From Bacteroidetes/Chlorobi group bacterium MS-B_bin-24 (GTDB taxonomy: Bacteria; Bacteroidota; Ignavibacteria; Kapaibacteriales; UBA2268): a DNA stretch of 64,000 nucleotides. Below, in pieces: positions 2,143-28,462 of this stretch; within the stretch, counting starts at the first letter, position 1; the number at the start of each line of letters is the position of its first letter. The position numbers were made by a program, and so were the translations under genes. The stretch lies in the NCBI GenBank assembly GCA_003731685.1, contig RCNO01000006.1:11753-75752 (forward strand), read 5' to 3'. Under the pieces are notes generated by a model. The model was not told the origin of the DNA, did no database searches, and saw only the letters and a program-made list of their open reading frames with translations.

Positions 2143-3924
2143 CTAATTTGATATCACAATATTATTTTCAGATTTCAAAAGGTAATATAATTCTTCTCGA
2201 TTATCATATCTAATTAAAATAAAATAAAAACCACAACCTAACTTATCAAAGTCTAAATTCAGGTTTGTCCCATCGAATGTGTAATTTAAGTCATCTAAGC
2301 TAATGGTATTTCCTAATATATCATAAATTTTTACTCCCGAAAAGGATTCCCTAATACCTTCAATTATTACTTTTGAATTGTTGCTTTTTATGTTGTTTTT
2401 CAAAAATTTATAGGATTTTTCTTCAACATCACTTACAAAATTCATACTAAATGTGCAGAATTTCCAAGCCAAGAGTTCGTGTCGTTCGTATGCATTCCCT
2501 GTTGCCGATGTTATTCCAATGTACCCCCATCCCTCCCCGTCCAATCCTAACATATTCACTATGTCTACATCCTTTACATCTATCACTGGCTCACCATATC
2601 TTTCGCTTGTGTCTATCCATACCTTTAATTCATTCTCACTATATTGTATTTTGACAAAATATATTGTCCCATCTACCCGCAATGGCATTATTCCTTTGTT
2701 CTCTGCTATTAAGTATGGTGAACGATGCTCCGATTTTATCTCCCCTAATCCACCGCTCAACACTGCTATGTGATTATCGTTCGGGTCGTTGTAATTTTCT
2801 ATCTGCAAACTGTCGTTTGCGTATGTGTCGATTTCAATTGCTAAACATCGTGGAAATCCGGAATATCCTATTCCTCCTCCTGTTAATCCAACTGTTTTGT
2901 TCGAATAGTTTTGAATAACAAAAGCAATTCCATCGGCTCCTTGATAATGTTCTTCCTTGTGCATAGTGTTTATTCCATCTCGCATCCTGAATTTGAATTC
3001 AGTTTCGAATCCATTGCCCAGAGGTACTTTTGTGCTTGTCCAAACTGCACCAGCTTGATTACTCAACGAAGGTGTGAGCACGATTGTATTTCCATCAAAT
3101 CTTGCAGAACCTATGAGATTCAGATTAGGGGAGGAATGGAAGTCGGCGTATTCGAATGACATTGGACCGCAGTTGGAACATTCGGCACGAATTTCTTCTT
3201 CGGTCAATGCTTTTTTCCAGATTTTAACTTCATCGATTGCACCAGTGAATCGGGCTGAGTTCCGCTCCTCGCCACCAAAATTCCACCAAGAACGAGCTAA
3301 TGCAAAATAAGAAAGCTCATAATTAACTTTCATCATCATAGAATCAATAAGAATTCCATTAACATATGCATAAAGCCAATTTTTTCGGTAAACCATCCCC
3401 AAACATACCCATACATTTTTATATTTTTCATCAAAAGGCATTTCAATTGTATTGCTAAAATTTAAGCCTGCAACAGTAAATTGATAATATAAATTAAAAT
3501 CGTTTCTTATTTCAAAAACGTGATTTTGAATACATAGGTAACCCTTTTGATAGTGTCCAAACCACAAATAAGCATCACCATAGTAGTTTGAAAATCCTTC
3601 GTGCTTGACCCACATCGTGATGGAAAACTCGTCTAACTGATGGAGGTCAATCGGCGGAAGCAAAACGTGTGAACCAATTTTCCGTTCATCGCCTCCGTTG
3701 GTGGGAATATAATATCCTTTGCCTTGGAAATGAATTGCTTTTCCCGAAACTCCCTGAACGAATGTCGGATTGTTGACCATTATGCCATCGTATCCATTGC
3801 CACTGACATCTCTGGTGTTCCCTTCGTCGAAACTCCAATAGGCAAGCAAACTTGGGTCGTAACAAAACGATAAGTAATTCAAGAAAAGAAGGAAGGAAAA
3901 GAAAACGGCGATGTATCTAAACAT
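2143..3924 (-). CDS. Secreted LamG-domain plus legume-lectin-like domain protein with T9SS-type C-terminal sorting domain
   Basis: N-terminal signal peptide MFRYIAVFFSFLLFLNYLSF. LamG-like WSFDEGNTRDVSGNGYDGIMVNNPTFVQGVSGKAIHFQG. Legume-lectin pattern GADGIAFVIQN...GGGIGYSG...LAIEIDTYAN...DPNDNHIAV. C-terminal KIYDILGN...GFYFILIRYDN resembles a T9SS CTD. Confidence 0.7.
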   Translation of the reverse strand: MFRYIAVFFSFLLFLNYLSFCYDPSLLAYWSFDEGNTRDVSGNGYDGIMVNNPTFVQGVSGKAIHFQGKGYYIPTNGGDERKIGSHVLLPPIDLHQLDEFSITMWVKHEGFSNYYGDAYLWFGHYQKGYLCIQNHVFEIRNDFNLYYQFTVAGLNFSNTIEMPFDEKYKNVWVCLGMVYRKNWLYAYVNGILIDSMMMKVNYELSYFALARSWWNFGGEERNSARFTGAIDEVKIWKKALTEEEIRAECSNCGPMSFEYADFHSSPNLNLIGSARFDGNTIVLTPSLSNQAGAVWTSTKVPLGNGFETEFKFRMRDGINTMHKEEHYQGADGIAFVIQNYSNKTVGLTGGGIGYSGFPRCLAIEIDTYANDSLQIENYNDPNDNHIAVLSGGLGEIKSEHRSPYLIAENKGIMPLRVDGTIYFVKIQYSENELKVWIDTSERYGEPVIDVKDVDIVNMLGLDGEGWGYIGITSATGNAYERHELLAWKFCTFSMNFVSDVEEKSYKFLKNNIKSNNSKVIIEGIRESFSGVKIYDILGNTISLDDLNYTFDGTNLNLDFDKLGCGFYFILIRYDNREELYYLLKSENNIVISN

Positions 3925-14264: not shown

Positions 14265-14753
14265 TTAGATTAATCCTTCTTCTTGAAGAATTTCGTCTAC
14301 AGGCTTCCCCTGATAAGTTGTATCCCCATTTTGCAAAGAAGCAACAACTTTGCGGAGTTTTTTCTCGCGTTTGCGACTGAAAGATAAATTTGAAAGCAGG
14401 CGAACTTTGGCAACGAGAAGTTTTTCTTCGATTGGCTTGCTCAAAAAATCGTCGGCACCCGAATCGATTGCTTTAATTTGGTTCGGAACATCGTTCAATG
14501 CAGTAACGATTACAACTGGAATTTCTTTGGTGCTTGGCTCCGATTTTAATCTTTTGGCAGTATCGTAGCCATCCAGTCGAGGCATCATAACATCAAGGAC
14601 AATGGCATCGGGCTTTTGTTTATCGACAAGTTCAAGGCATTCGACACCATCGTAGGCTTCGCCAACCTCGAACCCGTTTACTTCGAGGTATCTTCGCATA
14701 AGCTTGACGGTTATTTTGTTGTCATCCACTACATAAATCAGCGGTTTTTTCAT
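14265..14753 (-). CDS. Stand-alone response-regulator receiver protein with a short C-terminal extension
   Basis: CheY-like motifs VVDDN, DAIVLDVMMPRLDG, VVIVTA and DFLSKP. No recognisable output domain. ATGA overlap with the upstream oxidoreductase gene. Confidence 0.85.
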   Translation of the reverse strand: MKKPLIYVVDDNKITVKLMRRYLEVNGFEVGEAYDGVECLELVDKQKPDAIVLDVMMPRLDGYDTAKRLKSEPSTKEIPVVIVTALNDVPNQIKAIDSGADDFLSKPIEEKLLVAKVRLLSNLSFSRKREKKLRKVVASLQNGDTTYQGKPVDEILQEEGLI

Positions 14754-16927
14754 TCTCCTCCTTCTATTTTTTCATTCAACATTTTTTCGAATTCATTGTG
14801 CAAAATTCTCCTTCCCGTTTGTAAGGATTCAATAATTGCAAAAGTGGTAAGAGAAACAAATTTAATGCCAAAGAAATCTATGGGCGATTCCCCGTTTTCA
14901 AAATTACTTATTGTTGCCGACATTTCTTCTTTATGTCCTTTCTTTCCATCAAATTTTTTTTCAGTTACCCTATTTTTATAATATATCGACACAGATTCAA
15001 AATTATTTAAAATTGCTGATTGATTTTCCCAAAAAATTTCGCAATATTCTTTTCCCATCTGAGAACTACCATTGGAAAAGTATTCTATAACACCAAGCGA
15101 ACCATCTTGGAATTTAATTGTAATTGCAAGTGTGTCGTTTGTTGGAGTTTGCTCAAGGGTGTGAGAAATTGTTTCGGCAAAGACCGAAACTGGGAGTGAA
15201 TCTGTCAAAAACATTAATGTATCGACGAAGTGGCAAACCTCGCCAATTATTCTTCCACCGCCAATTTGCGGATTTTGTATCCAATGGTCGGGCGGAATAA
15301 ATCCTGCATTAACTCGATAGTGAATTGCCAAAGGTTGTTTCCTTTGGCTTACCTTCTCTTTAAGAAACACAAATGCGGGCGAAAATCTGCGATTATAACC
15401 AACCATCAAAGGAACTGGATTTTTGGCATATTCCTCTTCGATGCTTTTGAGCTGTGAATAATTCAGAACAAGAGGTTTTTCAACAAAAACGGGCTTTTGG
15501 GCTTTTATCGATTCGAGAACATATTGGTAATGGGTATCGTGGCGCGAGGCTATGAATACAAAGTCGATTTCAGGATTGTGAATAATCGAAAGGGAATCTG
15601 TTGTTGCATATTGGAAACCGAAATGACGGGCGACCGAAATTGCATTGGCCGAAGTTGCAGTCGAAACGGTGTGGAGTTCTACATCAAGATTTTTTAGAAC
15701 GGGCAACAGGTAGAATTGAGCAAAATTCCCTGCACCGATGAATCCAATCCTTTTCCTTCCTTTCCGTGCCGCGCGAATCCCAGAAGGAACTACTCGCTGA
15801 ATTGGTTTGCTCTTTTCGCCATAGGTCAACAAAATACCAATGAAGTTTTCTTTGCCCTCAGTTAAAAGTTTATAAGCTTCTACTGCATTTTCAATAGAAA
15901 ATCTATGGGTAATTAGGGGGGACAGATTTATTTTTTTGTCCGCTATTAAGTCGAGAAATGCTCTCATATTTCTATTTTCAGTCCAACGAACGTAAGGATA
16001 AGGGTAATCGATGCCATATTCTTCGTAGAACTTGTCGTATCGTCCGGGTCCGTAACTGCAAGCAATTGTGTACTCAAGTTCTTTTTCGTAGAAAGGGGAG
16101 CGGGGAAGGTTCATTCCAACACTTCCAACAACCACAATTCTTCCCTTTTTTCTAACAATTTTCAGTGCCAATTCTGTTGGTTCATTGCTTTGAGTGCTTG
16201 CTGTGATTATTACAGCATCGAAGCCTAAGCCATCGGTAAATGCCAAGAGATTTTGAATGGAATTTGGGTTGCCGTCCGAAACCAGACCACATCCAAAAGA
16301 TTTTGCCAATTCAAAATTATCGGGTCGAATGTCCACACCGGCAACAAAGCATCCGTTTGCTTTAAGAAGTTGTACAGTGATTAATCCAATCAACCCCAAG
16401 CCAATAACAGCTACATATTCGCCTAAACGGGGATTTGCTTGGCGGACTCCCTGAAGGGCTATAGAACCGATAGTTGCGAAGCTTGCCGATTCAAAATCAA
16501 CATTCGGTGGAATTTTGCAAGCCAAATTTTTTGGTATTGAAACGAATTCGCTGTGCGTGGCATAGCCAGCCCCGCCACAAGCGACTCGGTCGCCGGGTGA
16601 AAAAATTTCGCAGCGCGATTCAACAACCACTCCAGCAGTGCTATATCCCAGTGTTTTATATGAATCAAGCTTCGATAATACTTTATTGATTGTCGATTGT
16701 ATTCCTTCCTTTTTCAAGTTTTCCAAAACCGTTCGAACTTGTTCGGGTTGTTTCCTAAGGCGTTCAATTAACGAGGATTGGGTTTGTTCGACCGAAGTTT
16801 TCTCGGTTCCAGCGCTAATTACTGAACAAACGTTTTGCACAAGAATTCCGTTTGGTGGACAAGTTGGAACAGGAACATCTTCGATTAAAATTTCGCCACT
16901 TTTTTGATGTTGCAAAACTTGTAACAT
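14750..16927 (-). CDS. Bi-domain oxidoreductase (N-terminal MDR/zinc-type alcohol dehydrogenase fused to a Gfo/Idh/MocA domain)
   Basis: N-terminal part has GAGYATHSEF and the Rossmann motif VAVIGLGLIGL. C-terminal part has RIGFIGAGNFA and the EKP motif (VFVEKPL) of the Gfo/Idh/MocA family. Confidence 0.8.
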   Translation of the reverse strand: MLQVLQHQKSGEILIEDVPVPTCPPNGILVQNVCSVISAGTEKTSVEQTQSSLIERLRKQPEQVRTVLENLKKEGIQSTINKVLSKLDSYKTLGYSTAGVVVESRCEIFSPGDRVACGGAGYATHSEFVSIPKNLACKIPPNVDFESASFATIGSIALQGVRQANPRLGEYVAVIGLGLIGLITVQLLKANGCFVAGVDIRPDNFELAKSFGCGLVSDGNPNSIQNLLAFTDGLGFDAVIITASTQSNEPTELALKIVRKKGRIVVVGSVGMNLPRSPFYEKELEYTIACSYGPGRYDKFYEEYGIDYPYPYVRWTENRNMRAFLDLIADKKINLSPLITHRFSIENAVEAYKLLTEGKENFIGILLTYGEKSKPIQRVVPSGIRAARKGRKRIGFIGAGNFAQFYLLPVLKNLDVELHTVSTATSANAISVARHFGFQYATTDSLSIIHNPEIDFVFIASRHDTHYQYVLESIKAQKPVFVEKPLVLNYSQLKSIEEEYAKNPVPLMVGYNRRFSPAFVFLKEKVSQRKQPLAIHYRVNAGFIPPDHWIQNPQIGGGRIIGEVCHFVDTLMFLTDSLPVSVFAETISHTLEQTPTNDTLAITIKFQDGSLGVIEYFSNGSSQMGKEYCEIFWENQSAILNNFESVSIYYKNRVTEKKFDGKKGHKEEMSATISNFENGESPIDFFGIKFVSLTTFAIIESLQTGRRILHNEFEKMLNEKIEGGE

Positions 16928-17188
16928 ATGTATTCAAATTTTGAAAGTTATCGGAATACAAATTAAAAAAGATTTAAGTTAATTGTTGTAAAGAAGATTA
17001 TTGAAAAATGTCGTATTTTTTACTACAATTTTTTTTTCGGATAAACTACAAAAAAATCATTTTATTTATTATTTTGTAAAATTGTATAAACGCTTAATTT
17101 GAAAATTGAATAAAAAAAATTTTATTTTTTGTTTTTATAGAATTAAATTTGTAAGTATTTTGTAGATAAAAAATAAAAAGGTGAGAAA

Positions 17189-19516
17189 ATGTCGGCAAAA
17201 GGTGGAGGAGCAGGAAAGGTTTATTTCATATTGTACCTTGCGGTAGTTCTTGAGTTGCTAATTATCATAGTAGAAAGGGACGAAGCTGAGGAAGGGCTTT
17301 TGAAGAAGCAACGCGAAACAATGCGAATTGTCGAAAGTATTCTTTCCCAACTTCAGTCGGGGTCTGGAACCGAAGGAATAAATACGCGTCCGCAGGACGA
17401 AATCACAATTCCACCCCCGGGGATTAATTACCGAGAGATTATGGGCGCCGATATCAAAACTTCGCGTAAGTACATTGTCGAAGTTGGTGTTACCGATGTT
17501 TCAGCCGAATTGAAACGCAAGGAAGGCGAAAGCGAGAAGGAATATCTTGAAAGAATGAAAGTTGCTGAAAAACTTGCTAATGTTCAGGAGATTGAGTACC
17601 AAATATTCTATAATCCAAGCCAAGACCCATTGAATCCGCCAAAATTTTTAACCGAAGAAGAAATAAGGAAGCAAGGAATAGACTTTACGAAGTATCAACC
17701 CGGTCAAACAATTACCACCCCAGATGGTTCAACTTGGGAATTCCTTTCGCTACGAAAACTTGTTTTAGATTCTAAGAAAATCGAAGAAGTTATAACCGAT
17801 AACCTTTTGAATCTAAATCTTCAGCATCTTGAGCCATTTTATCCCAAAAATTTGCAGTTGGCAATTGGTCCTTCTTATGCTCCTAACAATAACGAGGATA
17901 GCGTGTTTTTCTACTCTTCGGAATATACAGCCCAAAGGGGTGGAAATCTTTTGGCGGACTTAAAGAAGAGAATTTTCATCGTCAACTTCCAGCCTCCAGC
18001 AAAGGCAGGATGGTATAAGTTAAGAATATATTCGCGAACTAATCGAATCTTGGGTGTTGTCAAAGAAACACCGGGCCCAGAAATTCCCGAAGACACACGT
18101 ATCAACATTGGCACTGTGACTTTGACCGTTAAGGACTTGAACAAAGTTAAGAGAGAGCTCGAAAATCGTTTGCTAAAATATAGTCTCCCCCCACAGGAAT
18201 TATTATTAAATGCTCAATCGGTGGCTGATGTAGAAAAGTTTGACCAGATGCTTGAAAATTCCATAAAGATGGCATCGGGCGAAGAGAACGCTGTCGAAAC
18301 GATTAGCAAAATTAAACTTTACGGATACATTTCTAAACTCCTTACACCCGGGCTTTCGGTGATGTTCCCGCAAAACTCCAACAGTATTTCGTTCGATGTT
18401 CGTGTTATAACTCCAAAGCCAGCTGTATCGGAGCCAACTGTAACGCTCGACCCATATTTTGCTCAATTTGATGCAGTTGAACCTGTCTTTGGCTTTACCA
18501 TAAGTCCATATCAAGGGACAACTGCTAATATCGTCGAAGGTCGTGTTCTCGATGCTGGCGGTTCGCCAGTTGCAAGAATAATTTGTCGTGGCGAGGATGA
18601 ATTTGCGGGAGCCATTGTTGCAAAACCTGTTGTTGGAGGTAATAGATTTTATAGAGGAATTGTCGAGAAAACGTTGCCTCCCGGAAAGTATAAGATTGAA
18701 ATAACCCACCGATTGGCTGGGCGTTCAAAAACCGAAACTGCCGAGCTCGAAATCTTTAAGACTGGTTTGACCGAAGAAAGCGAAAAACTTCTGCGTAGTA
18801 AACTTAGTGGTGCCTATTATGGATATAACATTTATTTCAATGTGATACCGAACTCTGGCGCCAAAATCAAACCCGACCAATTTAGAATTTTGCTCGCCAC
18901 AGATTTAGACCAACAAAAACCACCATACGTTGGGCTTTCTATCCCGCCAGAACAAAAAGTTTATCTTTCTTGTAAGGCAAACAAAATATTTACAAAAATT
19001 TGGTGGGTTCAACCAATCACCGGCAAAGAGGTTGAACTATTCCCATATACCGAGTTCGACATTAGACAGGATGAACCTAAGATTAACCTTGCTTCGAAGA
19101 CCGAAAAACGTAGCCAAACTGGGAATAGGGTAAAAGTCCAAGTATTGAATATTACTGTTGTTGAACCAGACGATGGTTCAAATGGAGCCACGAAGCCCGA
19201 AGTTTCGCTGAGCGTTGGGAAGCCTTCGTTTGAAGGTCAAGTTCAAGGTCTTGTCGATTTGGCTTCTGAGCCAATAATTGAAAAAGAGGAAGGTGGATAC
19301 AGCATTACGTTTGAATTTGTAGTGAATACCGCTGGAATCCCACGAACCCAAGACGAACTTACAGGAACAATTAAATTCCCAATAACTGCAACTGCTCGCA
19401 ATTTGTGTAATGGCAAGACATCGCAGAATAACAAAGCATTGAGCATATCTTTCTTGTACGAGCGTGAAAAAGTCCGTCGTTCAACGCAACCACCCAGTGG
19501 TGGGCGAAGAAGATAA
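17189..19516 (+). CDS. Hypothetical bitopic membrane protein with a large periplasmic region (helical segment plus probable Ig-like beta domains)
   Basis: Short basic N-terminus MSAKGGGAGK, single TM VYFILYLAVVLELLIIIV, then about 740 aa without recognised catalytic motifs and a basic tail PPSGGRRR. First gene after a 261-nt very AT-rich leader. Confidence 0.6.
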   Translation: MSAKGGGAGKVYFILYLAVVLELLIIIVERDEAEEGLLKKQRETMRIVESILSQLQSGSGTEGINTRPQDEITIPPPGINYREIMGADIKTSRKYIVEVGVTDVSAELKRKEGESEKEYLERMKVAEKLANVQEIEYQIFYNPSQDPLNPPKFLTEEEIRKQGIDFTKYQPGQTITTPDGSTWEFLSLRKLVLDSKKIEEVITDNLLNLNLQHLEPFYPKNLQLAIGPSYAPNNNEDSVFFYSSEYTAQRGGNLLADLKKRIFIVNFQPPAKAGWYKLRIYSRTNRILGVVKETPGPEIPEDTRINIGTVTLTVKDLNKVKRELENRLLKYSLPPQELLLNAQSVADVEKFDQMLENSIKMASGEENAVETISKIKLYGYISKLLTPGLSVMFPQNSNSISFDVRVITPKPAVSEPTVTLDPYFAQFDAVEPVFGFTISPYQGTTANIVEGRVLDAGGSPVARIICRGEDEFAGAIVAKPVVGGNRFYRGIVEKTLPPGKYKIEITHRLAGRSKTETAELEIFKTGLTEESEKLLRSKLSGAYYGYNIYFNVIPNSGAKIKPDQFRILLATDLDQQKPPYVGLSIPPEQKVYLSCKANKIFTKIWWVQPITGKEVELFPYTEFDIRQDEPKINLASKTEKRSQTGNRVKVQVLNITVVEPDDGSNGATKPEVSLSVGKPSFEGQVQGLVDLASEPIIEKEEGGYSITFEFVVNTAGIPRTQDELTGTIKFPITATARNLCNGKTSQNNKALSISFLYEREKVRRSTQPPSGGRRR

Positions 19517-19570
19517 AAATTTGTGATAATTATGAAAATTATATGTTTGTTTGACAAATGGTATAGCAAT

Positions 19571-21292
19571 ATGAGAAACCATAGGTTTATATTGGTGGCG
19601 GTTCTGCTCGGGGCACTATTTTTGCAGCCAATTTATTCGCAAGATGAAGCAACACGAACCGAAATGGAACAAATCCTCGGCAGATTTTCTAACTACCGCT
19701 TTGGTAATATTTCTATCTTTCGGCTGAAAAATATTGGAGACATTCGCAAAGCTTTGAAATTGCGACAGGAGAAAGCTGCCGGTGTTCAAATTAACGAGGA
19801 AATTCTTAAAACAGTAGAACAAGCAATATTGAAAATCATCGAAGACGGGGTGCTTGCAGACGAAAGTATGAGAGAAATTTTGCAGGCAATCGACGCTCGT
19901 GGCTTTACTCCACCCGAGCAGTCGATAATGGAGCAATTATATCAATATTACAAGTTGAAACATCAAGGAGCTGCCGAAGCAAGACCAGAAAATGCCTATC
20001 TAATTACAACAAGGGCGAAGCCCGGTGAAATTCCCGAGTTCATTATTGCCCTAATAATTAGTTACAATGCTTCGGGCGATATGGAAAAGCAACTTAAAAG
20101 TATCGGACCCGGCGATATTTACACCTACGACGAGATGAAAAACTTCCAACTCGATACTACTTTCTCTGCCAATAATCTTTATGATTTGATGGTTAATGCT
20201 CTTGTTCAACGCAATGTTGAGAACAAAACAATCGAAGCACAAGGTATTGGCAATGCTCAATGGTTTGCACGAAAAATATTTGGAAACACAGAAACTCCTT
20301 TCCTTAACGAAGCCGATTTGTCTTCGTATGATGTACAAAAAATATTACGGGTCAGCGAAGGTGAGCCTTTTAATTTTGGAATAAAACAAAATGAACTTAT
20401 TTTGAGTCCCGATTGGATACTTTGGCGTCGTTTCCCGCAACCCGGCTATTACGACGAAGCCTCGGGTAAATTCATTGTAGATACTACTTTGAACTCCAAT
20501 TCCGATTTGCCTCTTGTCGGGCTTGAACTGAAGTATGGTATCGATTGCATTAATTATACATCATTCTTTAGCGAGCGCGTTACTTTAAGTGCTTTGTGGC
20601 AAAATGTTAAACTCGGGTTAATCCTGCCCACCGATGGATGGGCTTCGATTGGCAAAAATGTTTTCGACATAAATCGTAAGCTTACCTACGCAGGGTTCGG
20701 GCTTGCTGGTTCCTTCGACTTCCCAATTAAAGTTATCCCGAAGAGTGGTGTGTTCCATTTTGACTTCGGTTATGTTTTGGGTGATGCAAAAGAAAGCAAG
20801 TATAAATCGCGTAATATTGACACTTTAACATATACTCCGTGGCGAACTATTGCAAATAGAGACTTCGATTATCTTATTCGCGGGAACATCCAAGCCTATT
20901 ATACTTTCGGTGTTCAAATCGATAATAACTACCTCTTCCGCTTCGGACTGGGCGGAACTTTCTATCAGGTTGAACAATGGTATTATGATTTAGATACGGC
21001 AAATTTGCGAAGGCGACTTGTGTTTAAGAAATACGACGAAAAGTCTGTTGGTGATGTTTCGATTAGGGTCGACTTTATGTCCACCGACATTGCAACTCCA
21101 TTTGGAGCCAATGTGCAATACTTCAATGGAGGCATAGGTGGCGGAGTTTGGTTGCAAGTTCCAATCATTCGCAATACATTATATCTGCGACTCGATGGTC
21201 GAGGCTACTTTGTGCCTTTCAAGGATAAGCCAGATGAATGGGAAAATAAAGGCTATTTCATTCCTATGGCTCGTTTTATTCTTACATTTTAA
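19571..21292 (+). CDS. Hypothetical secreted protein, N-terminal helical domain plus C-terminal putative outer-membrane beta-barrel
   Basis: Signal peptide MRNHRFILVAVLLGALFLQPIYSQ. The C-terminal half has alternating hydrophobic/aromatic beta-strand periodicity and a terminal Phe (ARFILTF), as in OMPs. Start moved to 19571. Confidence 0.55.
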   Translation: MRNHRFILVAVLLGALFLQPIYSQDEATRTEMEQILGRFSNYRFGNISIFRLKNIGDIRKALKLRQEKAAGVQINEEILKTVEQAILKIIEDGVLADESMREILQAIDARGFTPPEQSIMEQLYQYYKLKHQGAAEARPENAYLITTRAKPGEIPEFIIALIISYNASGDMEKQLKSIGPGDIYTYDEMKNFQLDTTFSANNLYDLMVNALVQRNVENKTIEAQGIGNAQWFARKIFGNTETPFLNEADLSSYDVQKILRVSEGEPFNFGIKQNELILSPDWILWRRFPQPGYYDEASGKFIVDTTLNSNSDLPLVGLELKYGIDCINYTSFFSERVTLSALWQNVKLGLILPTDGWASIGKNVFDINRKLTYAGFGLAGSFDFPIKVIPKSGVFHFDFGYVLGDAKESKYKSRNIDTLTYTPWRTIANRDFDYLIRGNIQAYYTFGVQIDNNYLFRFGLGGTFYQVEQWYYDLDTANLRRRLVFKKYDEKSVGDVSIRVDFMSTDIATPFGANVQYFNGGIGGGVWLQVPIIRNTLYLRLDGRGYFVPFKDKPDEWENKGYFIPMARFILTF

Positions 21293-21318
21293 TTTGTAAA
21301 TAATCTGTGATGAGTGAT

Positions 21319-22728
21319 ATGAAAAAGGTATTAGTTTTAATTTGGGTGTTTGTTTTATTTGCTGCCAGCAACTCATTTGGACAAAAACCACAAATCAACC
21401 CGCGCGATTTGATCGACTCAATGACAACAATTGACCCGGAAATCCGAAAATATTTCCCCCGTTGGAAAATTTGCGAGACCGACTTGCAAATTCAAATCTA
21501 TCAGGCATTTCGCATTTTGGGTTACGACGAATCGAAACTTAGTAAAACACGCATCGAAGTTCTTGCTGCACCGAGAAAAAGCGAGCAAGAACCATACGAT
21601 TTACTTTTGCTAACTTGCGGGGAGGTTAGCCTTACTGCTTCGCAAATGCAAAGTAATCTGGGAGAGCGTCTGCTGAATATTATTGCTGGTGGTGATGCTT
21701 TTGCTAATCCAAACACTTGGTTCGATGGGAAACGCGACTATTGCTATGTCGATATTCCTCCCGAAGTCCCTGTTACTGCTTCCCAAGCCCAAGCAATCAT
21801 AAGCTATCTTGAACCAACAAATGTAACTCATTCTTTCACTCTTTCCCTGTTTGAACAAAGTCTGAAATTTGGCGAATCCGGTTTCTGGCTGAAGAACATA
21901 ACCGGCACAGACGAGATTGGATATATTTTCTGGAATTCGGGATGCTCAAAAATTATTTTGAAACGACCACTTTATGTTAATCGCGATTCCAAAACTAGCG
22001 ATAGAATTCCCTACTTAATCAATGCTTATCTTGGTGGAGCTTATAGAATTTGGAGCGGTATCAATAATAAATCGGATATCTTCAGCTGGGTTCCACAGCA
22101 AAAGATTAATCAAGGTCCCGGCGGAAAACTGGTTGCTGGATTCGACTTCCATATGCCTTTCCATCCCCAATTCGGTCTTCATTTCAATTTGGAATTGCCA
22201 ATGACTGAGCTTAAAGAGGAAACAGTTGAAGCTGATAAGTATTATTCTTATGTTAAAACAAATGATTTGACACTCGATACATTTTCGGTTGCACCTTTGC
22301 TTCGCTCATCGGGTCAGGCAACTTTGTTCTATAATTTCTGGTTCACCGAAAGCAATCCCGAAAATTATATTCGCATCGATTTGGGTTTAAATTATTTTGA
22401 AGTCAGAGAAGTGTATTTCAAACCCACGCCATTTAGGAGCCGAATTCTTGTTCCATCCCCCGATGACGAAACTATACAGTTAAGCACCCATAAACCAAAT
22501 GAATTTGCCGACTGGATTTACGCAAAGATTGAATATCGGAATCAATCAGTTTGGCCCTTTGGTTTCAGTTTGCAATATTCTAATCAGATTTTGCTGGCAA
22601 GAGCTTACTTGCCAATATTCAACTGGCTTTACATCGAAGGAAGAGTTTCCCGAATCCTTCGAACTGCAAAGCCATTCGAAAATAAGACATTCTTCTTGAT
22701 TTCGCCAGTTTTGAGATTAACATTATAA
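21319..22728 (+). CDS. Hypothetical secreted protein, putative outer-membrane beta-barrel
   Basis: Signal peptide MKKVLVLIWVFVLFAASNSFGQ. C-terminal beta-strand periodicity (FGLHFNLELP, ATLFYNFWF, IRIDLGLNYFEV, FGFSLQYSN). 14 to 26 nt after the preceding gene. Confidence 0.55.
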   Translation: MKKVLVLIWVFVLFAASNSFGQKPQINPRDLIDSMTTIDPEIRKYFPRWKICETDLQIQIYQAFRILGYDESKLSKTRIEVLAAPRKSEQEPYDLLLLTCGEVSLTASQMQSNLGERLLNIIAGGDAFANPNTWFDGKRDYCYVDIPPEVPVTASQAQAIISYLEPTNVTHSFTLSLFEQSLKFGESGFWLKNITGTDEIGYIFWNSGCSKIILKRPLYVNRDSKTSDRIPYLINAYLGGAYRIWSGINNKSDIFSWVPQQKINQGPGGKLVAGFDFHMPFHPQFGLHFNLELPMTELKEETVEADKYYSYVKTNDLTLDTFSVAPLLRSSGQATLFYNFWFTESNPENYIRIDLGLNYFEVREVYFKPTPFRSRILVPSPDDETIQLSTHKPNEFADWIYAKIEYRNQSVWPFGFSLQYSNQILLARAYLPIFNWLYIEGRVSRILRTAKPFENKTFFLISPVLRLTL

Positions 22729-22754
22729 AATGCAAACTATGTAAAAAATATTAA

Positions 22755-22787
22755 GCCCTCTGCCTTCGGGTGGGAGGGTTTATTTTT
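22755..22787 (+). terminator. Intrinsic terminator-like hairpin between genes 3 and 4 of the envelope operon
   Basis: gccctctgcc-TTCG-ggtgggaggg stem with a TTCG tetraloop, followed by tttattttt. Confidence 0.6.
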
Positions 22788-22807
22788 AAAAATAATTTCG
22801 GTTGACT

Positions 22808-24151
22808 ATGAAAAGACTTGCTAAGAATCTTGGTTATTTTGCGATAGTTTTATTTGCTGTTGTTTTATTTAATTTTTATTCGAAATCACAACAACCCAAC
22901 CCAGATTCTGTTAAAAAAATTCAAGAGGTTTTGTCCTCTGCCGAAATCAAAACCGAAAAGAAACCTGTTGTCTTGACCATTCGAAATGTCGATATATCGA
23001 AATTCCCCGAAATCAATGTTATCGTCGAAGCATTCAACACAAGCGGATTCCCTTTGGATACATTGACAACCCAGGATGTTATCGTTACCGAAAATAATGT
23101 CGAAAAGAAAGTCATTTCGGTAACGAAGATTTCGGTGAGGGAAAGAATACCTGTCGATTTTGTTTTTATTATCGATGTTACAGGTTCAATGCAGAAGTAT
23201 ATCGACGAAGTAAAAAGCAACATTTCTCGGTTCCTTACCTCGTTACTTAGTCGAGGAATAGATTATCGCATTGGGCTTATTCTTTTTTCGGACATAGTCG
23301 AAAAGGTTTACCAGCCTGTGGACAACGTGAATACATTTCTCGGATGGTTAACGGGTGTTCGGGCTTATGGTGGGGGCGACGAAAAAGAGAACACATTGGA
23401 AGCAATCAAAGCCACTGGGAATATTGCCTTTCGTCCTTCCGCTAATCGAGTAATTGTTTTGGTTACCGATGCTCCCTACCATCAACTTGGCGAAAAAGGC
23501 GATGGAACCACATACGAAACAACAAATTCAATAATAGAATACTTGAACAAGAACGAAATCCGTTGCTTTACGATAACCCCGCCAAAATTGAAGGAGTATA
23601 AAACCATAGCCTCGAAAACTCGTGGCAATCAATTCGACATAGAATATCCGTTTTCGACTATTCTTAATAATTTCTCGAATCAATTAACAAATTTGTATTC
23701 GATTAAGTACCGCACAGATTTGCCAGCAATACCCGATTCGATAAATATTGCCATTTTCAGTCCAGAACGCAAAGAAATAGTTCGCCGCACGATTCCGATT
23801 GTTGAATTGGGACGTAAGTTGATAATCGAGAACCTGCTTTTCGATGTGAATAGTGCCACTTTGCCCGACACGGTCAAAGAATTGGAAATACTTTATCAAT
23901 TTATGAAGAACAAGCAAAATGTTACGATATTAGTCGAGGGGCACACCGACGACAAGGGTTCACATCCATACAACGACCGATTGTCGATAATGCGTGCGGA
24001 ATCGGTGAAGAACTATCTTGTTCGAAGGGGAATAGCCCCCGAGCGAATCAAAACAGTGGGATATGGCAAAAGGAAACCCATAGCCCCGAACGATACGGAA
24101 TTCGGTCGCCGTCTAAACCGCCGAACAGAAATAGTAATCGTCTCGAAATAA
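22808..24151 (+). CDS. vWA-domain protein with a C-terminal OmpA-like peptidoglycan-binding domain
   Basis: N-terminal TM/signal anchor. vWA MIDAS-type motif FIIDVTGSM with downstream LVTDA. C-terminal OmpA domain FDVNSATL...EGHTDDKGSHPYNDRLSIMRAESVKNYL...NRRTEIVI. Confidence 0.8.
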   Translation: MKRLAKNLGYFAIVLFAVVLFNFYSKSQQPNPDSVKKIQEVLSSAEIKTEKKPVVLTIRNVDISKFPEINVIVEAFNTSGFPLDTLTTQDVIVTENNVEKKVISVTKISVRERIPVDFVFIIDVTGSMQKYIDEVKSNISRFLTSLLSRGIDYRIGLILFSDIVEKVYQPVDNVNTFLGWLTGVRAYGGGDEKENTLEAIKATGNIAFRPSANRVIVLVTDAPYHQLGEKGDGTTYETTNSIIEYLNKNEIRCFTITPPKLKEYKTIASKTRGNQFDIEYPFSTILNNFSNQLTNLYSIKYRTDLPAIPDSINIAIFSPERKEIVRRTIPIVELGRKLIIENLLFDVNSATLPDTVKELEILYQFMKNKQNVTILVEGHTDDKGSHPYNDRLSIMRAESVKNYLVRRGIAPERIKTVGYGKRKPIAPNDTEFGRRLNRRTEIVIVSK

Positions 24152-24360: not shown

Positions 24361-26193
24361 ATGGGTTCATTTGATTCTACCAAAAGAAGTCTTTATGATA
24401 TACTAACCGATGTTGATAAAGGGAAAATACAGTTGCCAGATTTTCAAAGAAGCTGGGTATGGGACGATGACAGAATAAAAGGAATAATTGTATCGGTGGC
24501 AAAATCTTTCCCTATAGGCGCAATTATGTTGTTAGAAACAGGGAACGATGGTATTAAATTTAAAGCGAAACCTGTTGAAGGTGTGAAAAATGCAAATGGT
24601 GTAGAACCCGAAATGTTAATCCTTGACGGACAGCAACGAATAACATCTCTTTATAAAGCTATTGTTACAAATGAGGTTGTGGATACAAGGAATTCCCAAG
24701 GGTTTGAAATAAGACGCTGGTATTATATTGATATGAAAAAAGCTTTAGACCCTAATACAGATTTAGAAGATGCGGTTTTTTCGATTAATGAGAAAAAAAT
24801 CATAACTGAAAATATTGGTCGGACAGTTGTATTAGACTTATCTACCGAAGAAAAAGAATACGAAAATTTAATGTATCCAGTTTCTAAGATTGATGAATAC
24901 AGCGAATGGAGAAAAGGGTTTAATAAATTTTGGAAATATGACCCAGAAAAAATGGAACTTTGGGATAAATTTGAAGAAAAAATTATTCATAACTTCAATA
25001 CTTATCAGATTCCATTGATCATAATGAAAAAGGACAATCCAAAGGAGGCTGTTTGTCAAGTCTTTGAAAAGGTTAATACTGGTGGAATTTCTTTAACTGC
25101 TTTCGAACTTTTAACCGCTACTTATGCTGCTGATGGTTTTGATTTAAAAGCTGATTGGGAAAATATAAAGAAAAAATTTAAAGAACATAAGGTTCTTGAA
25201 CTCACAAGTAATACCGATTTCATACAAGCTCTTACACTTTATTCGACCTTTAAAAAAAGGCTAGAAAAAAGCGATGCTCCACCAGTTAGTGCAAAGAGAA
25301 AGGATATACTTGATTTATCCCTTGATGATTATAAAAAATATCGCGATGATATTGCGGGTGGATTTATTAAAGCTTCGAAAATACTAGTAGAAAATCATAT
25401 TTATACTGCACGCGATTTACCCTATACCACACAACTTATACCTATGGCAGCTATTTTAGCCCATCTGGGGAATAAAATTGAATATATGGGCAATAAAAAT
25501 AAGTTAATGCGATGGTTTTGGTGTGTTGTTTTTGGTGAACTTTATGGCTCTGCGCCTGAAACTCGTTATGCTTTGGATATGATTCAGGTTACAGATTGGA
25601 TTGATAATAATGGGGAAGAACCACAGACAATTTATGATGCTAACTTTTCGCCGAGCCGTTTGCATACTTTACGAACAAGAAAAAGTGCAGCTTATAAAGG
25701 AATATACGCTTTATTGATGGATGATAATATTAAGGATTGGCTTTCTGCAGCAAGAATTGATTTTAGCACATATTTCTCTGAATCAATTGATATTCATCAC
25801 ATTTTTCCAGAAGCTTGGTGTAGAAGAAATAACATTCCTCGTGATGATTATGATTGTATAATTAATAAAACACCATTATCAAGCAGAACTAATCGAATTG
25901 TAAGCGGGGATGCCCCAAGCAAATATTTACAGAGATTAAAAAAACATGCGGGTGTAAGCGACGAAGAATTCATTAACATTTTAGATTCGCATTTAGTTAA
26001 CATAGAATTTTTGTACAGAGACGACTTTTATGGATTTTTTAATGACCGTAAGGAAAGACTTTTACAGAAGATTGAAAAGGCGATGGGCAAAAAAATCCCA
26101 AGAACCAGCCAACCTTTCGAAGAAGTGGAGAGCAATTATTTTGATAATGGTGAAGACGAAGAGGAGATATTTTATAATCCTGAATTATTCTAA
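24361..26193 (+). CDS. DUF262 (ParB-like NTPase) plus DUF1524 (His-Me finger nuclease) protein, GmrSD-family type IV restriction-like
   Basis: N-terminal LPDFQRSWVWD and ILDGQQRITSLY (DGQQR) motifs. C-terminal IDIHHIFPEAW...INKTPLSSRTNR nuclease motif. The gene and its flanks are visibly more AT-rich than neighbouring genes. Confidence 0.75.
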   Translation: MGSFDSTKRSLYDILTDVDKGKIQLPDFQRSWVWDDDRIKGIIVSVAKSFPIGAIMLLETGNDGIKFKAKPVEGVKNANGVEPEMLILDGQQRITSLYKAIVTNEVVDTRNSQGFEIRRWYYIDMKKALDPNTDLEDAVFSINEKKIITENIGRTVVLDLSTEEKEYENLMYPVSKIDEYSEWRKGFNKFWKYDPEKMELWDKFEEKIIHNFNTYQIPLIIMKKDNPKEAVCQVFEKVNTGGISLTAFELLTATYAADGFDLKADWENIKKKFKEHKVLELTSNTDFIQALTLYSTFKKRLEKSDAPPVSAKRKDILDLSLDDYKKYRDDIAGGFIKASKILVENHIYTARDLPYTTQLIPMAAILAHLGNKIEYMGNKNKLMRWFWCVVFGELYGSAPETRYALDMIQVTDWIDNNGEEPQTIYDANFSPSRLHTLRTRKSAAYKGIYALLMDDNIKDWLSAARIDFSTYFSESIDIHHIFPEAWCRRNNIPRDDYDCIINKTPLSSRTNRIVSGDAPSKYLQRLKKHAGVSDEEFINILDSHLVNIEFLYRDDFYGFFNDRKERLLQKIEKAMGKKIPRTSQPFEEVESNYFDNGEDEEEIFYNPELF

Positions 26194-26259: not shown

Positions 26260-26871
26260 TTACTTCGAGCGAACTGAAAAGAACAGAAGGACAACGAGGG
26301 CGCTCGACACAATTACCACGATTGGCTCGATGTAGCGGTCGAAGAAAGTTTCCTTTTCGGGGGGAAGTTCTCCTTTGAACGGTGAGCCATCGCGTTCGAT
26401 GTAGCCAATCGATTCAACATCAATTGTGTCGGTTGCAAGAGTGTCGAATTTGAATGGATTTATTGGTAGGCTCTTCCTTTTAATCAACGCAGAGACAGAA
26501 AATGCAATCGTTCTTTTAAGTTTGTTCTTTCCATCAGGGATTTTCGCGTATTCAATCCTGAATTGATTTACAAGTAATTCGAGTTTTGAAATGGTGTCCG
26601 ATTCTGAATAATAAAAACGCAAATTTCGGGTTGAAAGTTCCGAAATGAGTATCCCTTCGATATATTGCGAGATTGGATGATTTGTGCACTTAATTGAATA
26701 GGGGCTATCGGGAAATTTTTGAAGTTCAATGTAAATCTTTTCGGCAAATTTCTTAATCAATGACTGCGTTTGCTCAAAATTTGTTCGGGGCAAAGGGTCG
26801 TTTGCTTGTACTGGCAGTGATGAGGGAATGCAGAACACAATCAAAAGCAATTTGAAAATGCGGAGGGTCAT
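26260..26871 (-). CDS. Hypothetical secreted protein with a C-terminal membrane anchor
   Basis: Signal peptide MTLRIFKLLLIVFCIPSSLPVQA and C-terminal TM IVVIVSSALVVLLFF. 4-nt overlap with the upstream ORF. Confidence 0.5.
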   Translation of the reverse strand: MTLRIFKLLLIVFCIPSSLPVQANDPLPRTNFEQTQSLIKKFAEKIYIELQKFPDSPYSIKCTNHPISQYIEGILISELSTRNLRFYYSESDTISKLELLVNQFRIEYAKIPDGKNKLKRTIAFSVSALIKRKSLPINPFKFDTLATDTIDVESIGYIERDGSPFKGELPPEKETFFDRYIEPIVVIVSSALVVLLFFSVRSK

Positions 26872-27335
26872 TTATTGTTTGCTTTTTTAAACTGAACCAG
26901 TGCGTCGGTAAGTTCAACATCGTTCCAAAAGGAACTCGGACGGATGCGATAAGGCTTTGTTCGGAATGTTACATATATTCGGAATACTTTTAAAGAGCGG
27001 CGGAGATTGGTTATGATTTCCCGACCAACTTGGATTCGGACAATTTGGGTTGCGGGGATAACTCGCTCACGAAATCTTGTCTTCAAAATAATCGAATCCT
27101 TTCCAACAATTATTTTCGGTTCTTTCCAAATATTGTAGAGATAGGCAATGATGGAAAACACGATGATGAAGAAAAGCAAAAGGACAATTGGGTCAGTCAA
27201 CGAAAGAGTAAGCGTTCCTTCGGCGATAGTACCACGAATAAAAGAGTAGATGATTAAGACAATTGAATATATGGCAATCGATTTCCAGTAGAAATCGAAT
27301 CTCTTTTCGAAAGTTGCTGGTAATTGTTTACCCAT
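26868..27335 (-). CDS. Hypothetical membrane protein (two TM helices plus a small PH-like soluble domain, tentative)
   Basis: TM segments IAIYSIVLIIYSFI and IVLLLFFIIVFSIIAYLY, followed by a basic beta-rich tail. Lies downstream of murG in the same orientation. Confidence 0.5.
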   Translation of the reverse strand: MGKQLPATFEKRFDFYWKSIAIYSIVLIIYSFIRGTIAEGTLTLSLTDPIVLLLFFIIVFSIIAYLYNIWKEPKIIVGKDSIILKTRFRERVIPATQIVRIQVGREIITNLRRSLKVFRIYVTFRTKPYRIRPSSFWNDVELTDALVQFKKANNK

Positions 27336-27373: not shown

Positions 27374-28462
27374 TTAAATATTCATAAAATTCAAAATTTC
27401 TTTTGCAATTTCGTAACCAGCATTGGGATTCCCAAATTTTCTGATATTTTGCGAAAGTTCTTGCAATTTTGCTGGATTTTTGAACAAAGAGATAATCGTT
27501 TGCACAAGCGTATCTGCAATTTCGTTATCGAGAATCATTATTGCAGCATTAGATTTAGCGAGTTTAAGGGCATTTTCTTCTTGATGTTTATTTGTTGAGT
27601 AAGGATATGGGATTAGAATTGCAGGCTTCCCAAGGGCAGAAATTTCGGCAATAGTCGATGCACCCGAACGAGCCACAACAAGATTGGCAGACGCGTATGC
27701 CGATGCCATATCCTCAATGAATTCCAGCATCTTTAAGCCTTTGTCGTTCGGTTTTTCGAAATCGAAATTTTTTCTCGTTTGCCAAAGTATTTGAATTCCT
27801 TCGTTCAGCAGTGTTTTGTAGTTCGAATGTATCGTGTGGTTAATCGAACGGGCGCCAAGGCTACCACCGAAAACAAGTAGCGTAGGTTTTTCGGGCTCCA
27901 AACCAAACTTTTCCCTTGCCTCTTGGGGTGTCTTTGGAGCGAGCAAATCTTTTCTGATTGGCGTCCCCAGAACCTTGACCCTTTCCCGGACTTCCAGCGG
28001 GAGCCATTTTTTTGTCTCTTCGAAAGTTGCAAAGAATATGCTTGCCCTTCGAGCGAGCAAACGGTTCGCCCTACCGGGAACAAGGTTGCTTTCGAGCAGA
28101 AAGATTGGCTTCTTTTCGGAATAGAGCGACATCCCTGCGGGATAACTTATGTACGCACCAGTGGCAATTCCGAAGTCGATGGCCTTGTTCCGTATTAAGT
28201 CCCGACAAATATTTATTGATTTCAAAGTATTAAGAAAAAATTTAAAGAATTTTAAGCCAAAACCTGCGAAACCTACCATTGGAATTGGTGTAAAATGCCA
28301 ATGTTTTTCTTTGCAAACCCTTGCTTCAATCTTCTCGGGACTACCAACAGCAAAAACTTCGATTGGAACCCTGTTTGCCGTTATGTTCGCAATTTCCTCT
28401 AATACAGCAACGGCTGGGAAAAGATGCCCTCCCGTACCGCCTGCTGAAAGTAAAATTTTCAT
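27374..28462 (-). CDS. murG: Undecaprenyldiphospho-muramoylpentapeptide beta-N-acetylglucosaminyltransferase
   Basis: GGTGGHLFPAVAV N-terminal signature, central GGSLGA motif and C-terminal HQEENA motif. Confidence 0.9.
   Translation of the reverse strand: MKILLSAGGTGGHLFPAVAVLEEIANITANRVPIEVFAVGSPEKIEARVCKEKHWHFTPIPMVGFAGFGLKFFKFFLNTLKSINICRDLIRNKAIDFGIATGAYISYPAGMSLYSEKKPIFLLESNLVPGRANRLLARRASIFFATFEETKKWLPLEVRERVKVLGTPIRKDLLAPKTPQEAREKFGLEPEKPTLLVFGGSLGARSINHTIHSNYKTLLNEGIQILWQTRKNFDFEKPNDKGLKMLEFIEDMASAYASANLVVARSGASTIAEISALGKPAILIPYPYSTNKHQEENALKLAKSNAAIMILDNEIADTLVQTIISLFKNPAKLQELSQNIRKFGNPNAGYEIAKEILNFMNI

Follow-up and report, generated by a model that had tools for sequence, protein, structure and literature searches.

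A conserved four-gene module of Kapabacteria that may encode an envelope-spanning assembly

Trans-envelope devices such as Tol-Pal, Ton, the T9SS (type IX secretion system) and Glt govern outer-membrane attachment, division, secretion and movement in diderm bacteria, and to our knowledge only a handful of such device types are known. The Kapabacteria, a widespread and uncultured class of Bacteroidota, have been recovered mostly from hot springs, sediments and bioreactors. The subject of this report is a module of four genes, here termed g1 to g4, on contig RCNO01000006.1 of one member of this lineage, Bacteroidetes/Chlorobi group bacterium MS-B_bin-24 (assembly GCA_003731685.1); 'the window' denotes the whole stretch of 64,000 nucleotides (nt) analysed around it, corresponding to positions 11,753 to 75,752 of the contig. 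A first-pass annotation, made from the letters of the sequence without database searches, had described the module as an operon for an uncharacterised trans-envelope complex, and that proposal is followed up below.

Gene content and family searches

The module occupies positions 17189-24151 of the window and consists of four open reading frames (ORFs) on the plus strand, every one of which closes with TAA (lengths in amino acids, aa):

17189-19516, + strand: g1, 775 aa, bitopic inner-membrane protein, new family by sequence
19523 (GTG) or 19571 (ATG) to 21292, + strand: g2, 573 aa from the ATG, exported, with a helix-rich N-terminal half and a predicted C-terminal barrel region
21307-22728, + strand: g3, 469-473 aa, exported, with an N-terminal alpha/beta domain and a predicted outer-membrane beta-barrel
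22802 (TTG) or 22808 (ATG) to 24151, + strand: g4, exported vWA plus OmpA-like protein

The ATG at 19571 is the more likely start of g2, because the resulting 573-aa protein opens with a normal signal peptide, like its orthologues, and g3 likely starts at 21319, as its residue M5 is conserved. With the likeliest starts the intergenic gaps are 54, 26 and 79 nt, in keeping with the original description of four co-directional, tightly spaced genes.

When g1-g3 were compared with Pfam and NCBIfam, no family was found at E <= 1 beyond isolated sub-threshold matches, and searches of PADLOC and PHROGs with the same proteins gave no matches. The matches to EFG_IV, DUF6850, FliS, NADH peroxidase and REase_II were rejected as isolated, far below their cut-offs and unshared among family members; that to DUF6850, for instance (E 0.07; 12.7 bits, where the cut-off is 27), was seen in one of 58 members and was taken as chance. 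Scanning every member of three alignments of 57-61 sequences, built for g1-g3, with Pfam likewise revealed no family in common. Nothing was retrieved from the PDB by sequence search with the single g1-g3 proteins (phmmer) or by profile hmmsearch with g1 and g2. All database homologues of g1-g3 are labelled 'hypothetical protein' and are without Pfam domains, g1 was limited to just 214 clusters when 1.84 billion representative proteins were searched exhaustively by profile, and in a literature search no searchable paper mentioned g1-g4 or such a cluster in Kapabacteria or Ignavibacteria. To judge from these comparisons, g1-g3 are three undescribed protein families; the earlier failure to recognise a known family in any of them is thus matched by the searches of Pfam, NCBIfam, PADLOC, PHROGs and the PDB, the last by both sequence and profile.

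Predicted structures of the four proteins

The segments of the four proteins on which their interpretation depends are as follows:

17219-17272, + strand: g1 transmembrane (TM) helix (aa 11-28) with invariant Glu22; most conserved segment of g1
18098-18364, + strand: g1 beta-hairpin and helical module (aa ~304-392); common to anti-sigma-like proteins with a T9SS C-terminal domain
18377-19462, + strand: g1 immunoglobulin (Ig)-like beta-sandwich domains (aa ~397-758), predicted from AlphaFold2 and Foldseek; least conserved part of g1
20669-21289, + strand: g2 segment (aa 367-573) with homology to the barrel of g3, from hhalign and BLASTP
21943-22725, + strand: g3 predicted beta-barrel (aa ~213-473), from AlphaFold2 and Foldseek
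23156-23635, + strand: g4 vWA domain (aa 119-278) with the metal ion-dependent adhesion site (MIDAS) D125xT127xS129, from Pfam and alignment
23837-24121, + strand: g4 OmpA-like peptidoglycan-binding domain (aa 346-440), from Pfam, alignment and PDB matches

The N-terminus of g1 comprises a 10-residue tail with two Lys, the TM helix at residues 11-28 and then the acidic stretch ERDEAEE, a charge pattern that indicates an N-in, C-out orientation; g1 is a type-II bitopic inner-membrane protein. In the AlphaFold2 model, computed from a 61-sequence alignment (mean predicted local distance difference test score, pLDDT, 82.9), a single long helix spanning residues 7-57 unites the TM segment with a stalk and is followed by a mixed alpha/beta region (residues 60-395) and by three or four Ig-like beta-sandwich domains (~397-758). 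Foldseek searches of the PDB with this model returned generic tandem Ig-like proteins (titin, contactins and the Ig domains of PrgB), as did those of a viral-model library, and these matches swamp any signal from residues 60-395. The first-pass picture of g1 as a 775-aa bitopic protein with a basic tail, one TM helix, a helical segment and Ig-like regions is therefore upheld by both AlphaFold2 and Foldseek. Comparison of g1 with g2 and g3 by hhalign found no shared domains (probabilities < 1%).

Conservation of g1, expressed as mean majority-residue frequency by segment, drops outward from the membrane, from 0.98 in the TM helix, where 17 of the 18 positions are at least 90% conserved, to 0.88 in the stalk helix and 0.83 in residues 58-100. 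The motif KVYF[VI]LYLAVxLELLIIxxERDxAE is unchanged even in variants of g1 that are only ~30% identical elsewhere, and Glu22, which lies inside the hydrophobic stretch, is invariant in the 61 g1 sequences and in six distant variants. As the TM helix is conserved on every face, unlike the expected pattern for a lipid-facing anchor, it is most likely packed wholly against protein; the conservation pattern suggests that it is most likely buried either in an oligomer of g1 itself or in an inner-membrane partner whose gene lies elsewhere. The alternative of a type IV prepilin-like or TatB-like N-terminus was dismissed: neither a Gly at -1 nor a hinge is present, and the Glu comes after the hydrophobic stretch. 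Homology to GldM, ExbD or TolR was similarly set aside: the Gly-rich tail and 'VxLxLLII' are alike by eye, but no model or PDB match supports the relationship and TM helices are of low complexity, such that the likeness is treated as analogy only.

One segment of g1 recurs in other proteins. P0470, encoded in a related locus (L088, 7439-10385), and the proteins P0472 and P0498 each combine a cytoplasmic N-terminal part and a single TM segment with a C-terminal sorting domain of T9SS type, and share with g1 solely the module of residues ~300-392 (IGxVxLTV...KIxLYGYIxKL). P0470 resembles an anti-sigma factor, since its gene overlaps an upstream gene for an extracytoplasmic function (ECF) sigma factor.

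Across orthologues, g2, g3 and g4 begin with Sec signal peptides whose last residues are ..AQ or ..SQ and which contain no lipobox. For g3, the AlphaFold2 model (58 sequences, pLDDT 81.6) consists of the signal peptide, an alpha/beta domain (~32-150) containing three conserved Cys, and long antiparallel strands (~213-472). The best 50 of its 855 Foldseek matches in the PDB (E <= 10) are all outer-membrane or other membrane beta-barrels, those listed including Bdellovibrio OmpA, PorB, FapF, AlgE, BcsC, FadL/TodX, autotransporter barrels and one T9SS chain. As all of these matches are weak (E 3e-4 to 4e-2, template-modelling scores 0.2-0.47) and generic, g3 is regarded as a generic barrel and not as a member of any of the matched families; the model predicts an outer-membrane-type beta-barrel combined with a soluble N-terminal domain. 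Similarly, neither g2 nor g3 had a Pfam or NCBIfam match above cut-off to the named barrel families PorP/SprF, FadL, Omp85/POTRA or autotransporters.

A long, helix-rich N-terminal half precedes the barrel region of g2, in which residues 367-570 are homologous to residues 263-472 of g3 (hhalign 92%, E 5.5e-7; BLASTP E 1e-6), so that g2 probably shares the barrel of g3 by descent; strand-type hydrophobic alternation is also higher in the C-terminal half of g2, by a crude measure. The generic features of an outer-membrane barrel are thus represented in g3 by a signal peptide and a modelled barrel, and in g2 by a signal peptide and homology. The sequence of g2 ends ..FILTF, whereas g3 ends ..LRLTL or ..LRLTI, with alternating hydrophobic residues and an aliphatic last residue, apart from one variant g3 that ends ..LHLNF. 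Hence the reading of g2 and g3 from the bare sequence, as signal-peptide proteins of ~570 and ~470 aa with barrel-like C-terminal halves, agrees with what is seen across their orthologues, in the g3 model and in the homology between the two; the terminal Phe to which attention had been drawn in g2 is at least 90% conserved.

The domains of g4 are the only ones in the module to be assigned to established families. Pfam scores exceed their cut-offs for VWA (42.1 bits; cut-off 23.8), VWA_2 (46; 27), VWA_4 (47.1; 27) and OmpA PF00691 (81.7; 27.2). The motif D125-V-T-G-S129, with Thr in place of the first Ser, is conserved along with GGGD..EN and TDA motifs, which predicts a metal site, and both the MIDAS and the wall-contact motif EGHTD...N..L...R are retained in 61 orthologues. 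PDB sequence matches were confined to the OmpA-like part (Pal, OmpA, MotB, PomB and MotY), while those in PADLOC were only to the peptidoglycan-binding region of ZorB, which is of MotB type. The vWA domain with its MIDAS and the OmpA-like domain had both been recognised in the first-pass annotation, correctly on this evidence, yet the membrane or signal anchor that it placed ahead of them was not borne out. No lipobox Cys is present in g4 orthologues, and the N-terminus looks like a cleaved signal peptide of signal peptidase I type, which argues for a soluble exported protein instead of a membrane-anchored one; g4 is not a lipoprotein.

Conservation and regulatory sequences of the module

Relatives of g1 are encoded in 290 species-representative genomes, from which 80 loci were fetched; 85 loci were used for ORF clustering and 89 for the palindrome search described below. 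All 80 are from metagenome-assembled genomes labelled Kapabacteria/Kapaibacterium, Ignavibacteria, Chlorobiota, Chloroherpeton or Bacteroidota, bar some obviously mislabelled bins, and the NCBI taxonomy places Kapaibacterium within Bacteroidota. The families of g1, g2 and g3 have the same narrow phyletic range. By tblastn, g1-g2-g3-g4 keep a constant order and strand wherever the locus is long enough, even where g1 identity is as low as ~40%. Clustering of ORFs within ±10 kb of the 85 loci identified g1-g4 as the only conserved families, found in 85, 79, 67 and 64 loci, respectively; the next commonest neighbour family occurs in 21. These neighbours are housekeeping genes (HD-domain, TrkA/TrkH, peptidase M28, PyrE-like, MurG and MreB), with no conserved motor, ATPase, cargo, adhesin, glycosyltransferase or polymer synthase among them across the 85 loci, and the module lies amid housekeeping genes in all 80 of the fetched loci. 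In loci with enough DNA, evolution has not separated the four genes, nor is any further gene linked to them, and the co-conservation of the quartet on which the first-pass proposal depended is found by both methods.

Divergent forms of the module contain g1 with two or three barrel paralogues, and g4 may be present or absent. One such locus (L086, 10001-19290) encodes a 641-aa form of g1, three barrel paralogues, a vWA-OmpA protein and a 178-aa lipoprotein. In another (L085, 10001-14812), a 541-aa form of g1 is followed by two exported proteins, one g3-like and the other, of 564 aa and ending ..PRFYF, without a BLAST match to g2 or g3; a MlaE/ABC pair lies beyond this module on the opposite strand. 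A form of g1 of ~390 aa, which does not have the conserved TM helix, stands alone.

Upstream of g1, positions 16928-17188 form a 261-nt spacer that separates it from an oppositely transcribed gene for a 725-aa oxidoreductase fusion. Its GC content is 16.5%, as against 40.3% across the window, and it contains seven A or T runs of 6-9 nt each. Alignment with seven relatives revealed conserved blocks within otherwise freely varying AT-rich DNA, which, with the hairpin between g3 and g4, are the candidate regulatory features of the module:

17009-17027, + strand: 19-bp palindrome TGT[A/C]GT-N7-ACTACA, candidate operator of the g1 operon
17046-17059, + strand: second conserved site, CTACAAAAAAATCA, 37 nt after the palindrome start, from the alignment
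17121-17151, + strand: Bacteroidetes-type promoter-like site TTTA-N19-TAAATTTG; in relatives TTTG-N19/20-TAATTTTG
22752-22791, + strand: terminator-like hairpin with a U-run between g3 and g4 (dG -16.8 kcal/mol, z -3.0)

The composition of what had been called an AT-rich leader is thus as described, including its homopolymer tracts, but the region is better viewed as regulatory DNA between divergent genes, in which a palindrome is conserved and a promoter-like site is present. The exact palindrome was found in 20 of 89 loci, with every copy upstream of g1 whatever the upstream neighbour, and at a distance from the g1 start codon that varies from ~66 to 334 nt. When up to two mismatches were allowed it was present in 38 of 79 g1 upstream regions, compared with 2.2% of background windows. 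Because it is confined to these regions irrespective of the adjacent gene, the palindrome is probably the operator of a dedicated regulator. It occurs exactly once in the window, where the sole other near-match (44358-44376, one mismatch) is inside a coding region and is probably due to chance.

The exact Bacteroidetes promoter pattern has no match in the g1 upstream region of the window, as TTTA replaces TTTG at -33. This motif is enriched in the window as a whole, with 15 instances against 5.9 expected, and an exact copy (TTTG-N-TAnnTTTG) is located at 19520-19549, just upstream of the g2 ATG.

The hairpin bears on the description of the locus as a four-gene operon, of which the conserved adjacency, order and strand stand; a conserved terminator-like structure separates g3 from g4. 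Co-transcription of all four genes is on this account not assured and the module is for now better read as 'three plus one': the hairpin may end the g1-g3 transcript or set a lower level of g4, which may be expressed by read-through or from a start of its own.

Candidate functions and neighbouring genes

Co-conservation of the quartet, taken together with the predicted compartments of its products, suggests that g1-g4 form one envelope-spanning assembly specific to Kapabacteria and their kin, a reading that is given an even chance of being correct. The parts listed at the outset, namely a stalk in the inner membrane, two barrels and an anchor to peptidoglycan, are supported by models, homology, Pfam domains and synteny. 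Oligomers of g1 would stand in the inner membrane with their Ig-like domains extending across the periplasm; g2 and g3 would combine into a hetero-oligomeric unit of the outer membrane, in which their N-terminal domains would serve for docking; and the OmpA-like domain of g4 would fix the whole to the wall, its predicted metal-ion site perhaps clamping a partner in the manner of integrin-type vWA domains. By analogy with Tol-Pal or PorM-PorP-PorE, the likely function would be to tether the inner membrane, peptidoglycan and outer membrane to one another or to transmit force between them. Less confidence is placed in any specific role than in the assembly itself, although a constitutive structural or tethering role is more likely than secretion of a specific cargo, as the housekeeping neighbourhood shared by all 80 fetched loci, in which no cargo-like gene is seen, favours an architectural function.

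Several observations weigh against a single assembly of this type. Mean conservation falls to 0.48 in the last 250 residues of g1, in the distal Ig-like part that should contact outer-membrane partners, and no inner-membrane partner, motor or cargo is encoded near g1-g4 in the clustered loci. Support for a barrel in g2 consists of ~200 residues of homology and crude periodicity, and the N-terminal domains of g2 and g3 may face either the periplasm or the cell surface. No vWA-OmpA gene is found in cis in L085, and six of seven close relatives retain the hairpin ahead of g4, its stem showing a compensatory change; taken together, these suggest that g4 may be a looser partner of the other three. 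Of the contrary outcomes named in advance by the first-pass annotation, by contrast, namely placement of g1-g3 in known families, loss of co-conservation and soluble g2 and g3, none was encountered, g3 being modelled as a barrel.

The opposite proposal, that there is no single complex and that a pair of porin-like barrels, a vWA protein that binds the wall and a protein of the inner membrane act independently, held together by common regulation alone, would be in keeping with the hairpin, with the locus in which g4 is missing in cis and with the variation of barrel number between two and three. It is considered rather improbable: order and strand are strictly kept to ~40% identity while the flanks are reshuffled, which is unusual for functionally independent genes, three novel families share one narrow phyletic range, and conservation of the g1 TM helix on every face argues for tight protein contacts. 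An export or outer-membrane biogenesis pathway is judged very unlikely. In this reading a polymer, amyloid or lipid would pass through g2 and g3 as porin-like channels bearing periplasmic scaffolds, much as with BcsC, PgaA, AlgE or FapF, and would be guided in the periplasm by g1 and g4. The g3 model does have weak Foldseek matches to FapF, AlgE and BcsC, and the long helical half of g2 ahead of its barrel would suit such a channel, but the matches are generic and also take in porins, FadL and autotransporters, and the surroundings hold no conserved gene for a synthase, glycosyltransferase, ABC transporter or substrate. Beta-taco, MCE and TPR scaffolds are known to serve in lipid or polymer transfer, and g1 is built of separate Ig-like sandwiches instead.

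Among known systems the core of the T9SS is closest in its parts list, followed by Tol-Pal/Ton and the Glt apparatus of Myxococcus. This core consists of the PorM shaft, the PorP barrel and PorE, an OmpA-like anchor that binds a barrel, and GldM/PorM combine a single TM helix with a periplasmic shaft of four domains (PMC7463736). The resemblance extends to the host phylum, Bacteroidota, and to the combination of a one-TM bitopic protein bearing a multi-domain, partly Ig-like shaft with barrels and an OmpA_C-like anchor (PMC7463736). It is one of architecture only, the N-terminal TM helix and Ig-like multi-domain shaft of GldM/PorM being present in g1, for g1 matched neither the GldM_N and GldM_C models of Pfam, which were not hit by any of the 61 family members either, nor the T9SS models of NCBIfam, nor, by sequence or profile, any PDB chain, among which solved GldM/PorM chains should be represented. 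No GldL/PorL, GldK/N or translocon gene is in the cluster, where g2-g4 are the sole conserved neighbours in 85 loci, and carriers appear to have T9SS-type cargo besides the module. The D1 domain of GldM is all-helical, whereas in g1 a mixed alpha/beta region follows the stalk helix. Furthermore, the anchor g4 bears a vWA domain and is not a lipoprotein, unlike PorE, which is one (PMC7463736).

The axle proteins of 5:2 motors (MotB, ExbD, TolR and AglQ/S) have an acidic residue in their single TM helix, an Asp in the known families, and are encoded as operon partners of their ring subunits (PMC9389320). In g1, likewise, the only TM helix shows conservation on all its faces and carries an invariant acidic residue inside the membrane, although this is Glu22 in place of Asp; as in these axles and in TonB and TolA, the periplasmic part of g1 would reach the wall or outer membrane, and an OmpA-like wall-binding module is present in the system (PMC9389320). 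The difference is that this module resides on the separate soluble g4 and not on the TM protein. Such parallels are the basis for an energised secretion, adhesin-movement or gliding machine, in which the g1 shaft would dock through its Glu22 helix in a proton-driven ring of GldL, ExbB, TolQ or MotA type encoded elsewhere and would drive the g2/g3 outer-membrane unit, with g4 as a wall-bound stator anchor. An OmpA-like anchor is typical of stators, and g4 matches MotB, PomB, MotY and the peptidoglycan-binding region of ZorB; the lineage has T9SS-type cargo, and some carriers are labelled Chloroherpeton, a gliding genus. The burial proposed for the g1 helix is also reminiscent of GldM, whose TM helices are described as lying wholly within the GldL ring (PMC7463736). 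Nevertheless, this machine is considered unlikely. Neither g1 nor the 61 members of its family matched the GldM, MotB, ExbD, TolR or TonB models, GldM and PorM structures are missing among the 50 PDB Foldseek matches listed for g1, no cargo or adhesin gene is linked, and within the ~85 loci no ring-subunit gene of MotA, ExbB, TolQ or GldL type is adjacent to g1, against the operon pairing of the known 5:2 motors (PMC9389320). More speculatively, and with a correspondingly slim chance of being right, g1 could be the shaft of a new type of ion-driven trans-envelope machine, whose Glu22 helix and acidic collar E29-R-D-E-x-E-E might sit in a ring encoded elsewhere or form an ion-conducting bundle of their own, such that proton flow would be turned into movement of g2/g3 while g4 held the device on the wall.

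With Tol-Pal the likeness is conceptual: a bitopic inner-membrane protein that spans the periplasm and an OmpA-like peptidoglycan binder are joined to the outer membrane by a constitutive system encoded among housekeeping genes. By contrast, the module has dedicated barrels and no TolQ, TolR or TolB, g1 has no TolA or TonB domains, and the lack of a lipobox means that g4 is not Pal-like in its anchoring. The Agl-Glt gliding apparatus of Myxococcus is envelope-spanning, with several paralogous integral outer-membrane barrels and the vWA adhesin CglB (PMC12288465; Islam et al. 2023, cited there), and the module resembles it in its inner-membrane and periplasmic parts, its barrels and its vWA protein. 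However, CglB is a surface lipoprotein adhesin, in contrast to the exported, peptidoglycan-binding g4, and the apparatus has ~20 components as well as the AglRQS motor (PMC12288465). Pfam and NCBIfam scans of g1-g3 gave no named gliding family, no direct comparison with Glt or CglB sequences being made. Membership of the T9SS, the 5:2 motors or Tol-Pal fails in respect of both sequence models and the defining partner genes; the only classes that hold are the generic ones of OmpA_C-like, vWA, outer-membrane barrel and Ig-like proteins.

The proposed envelope-spanning assembly would accordingly be of a type already known, and three of its four protein families are undescribed. If g1-g4 do form one assembly, Kapabacteria own a device linking inner membrane, wall and outer membrane that draws on these three families, and were it ion-driven it would add a further member to the bacterial envelope motors that include the flagellar stator, Ton/Tol, GldLM and Agl. 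Even as a plain structural tether, the module would document envelope diversification within Bacteroidota. The invariant intramembrane Glu, the MIDAS, the peptidoglycan-binding domain and the candidate palindromic operator provide testable handles.

The remaining observations concern neighbouring genes. On the minus strand, 14265-16927 contains the gene for the 725-aa protein divergent from g1, an unusual fusion of zinc-ADH-like (ADH_zinc_N) and GFO/IDH/MocA (GFO_IDH_MocA) parts, and then that for a stand-alone receiver-domain protein; the fusion gene is tied to the module solely in relatives above ~65% identity. An Rfam scan of the window found three tRNAs and nothing else. Downstream of g4, 24361-26193 holds a GmrSD_N/DUF262 gene of low GC content (~0.30-0.36), with PADLOC matches (HEC-05, PDC-M55C and SspE-like). 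Situated between g4 and the murG block, it is missing at this position in the close relatives L006-L011 and is probably an inserted defence gene. Beyond it, genes at 26260-27335 on the minus strand, which encode small membrane proteins of 203 and 155 aa that have no Pfam match, adjoin murG (27374-28462). This trio recurs downstream of the module in close relatives, and of the three tblastn picks up murG and the 155-aa gene alone in the distant loci L001, L003, L029 and L032. A link of the module to cell division or shape was rejected as too patchy, murG with the two small membrane proteins being downstream in 9-12 of 85 loci and mreB upstream in seven; the murG beside the module is outside any division and cell wall (dcw) cluster. 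Finally, a LamG/legume-lectin protein with a weak T9SS C-terminal sorting domain is encoded at 2143-3924 on the minus strand, and the occurrence of T9SS-type cargo both in the window and in the relative L003 indicates that the lineage probably has a canonical T9SS besides the module.

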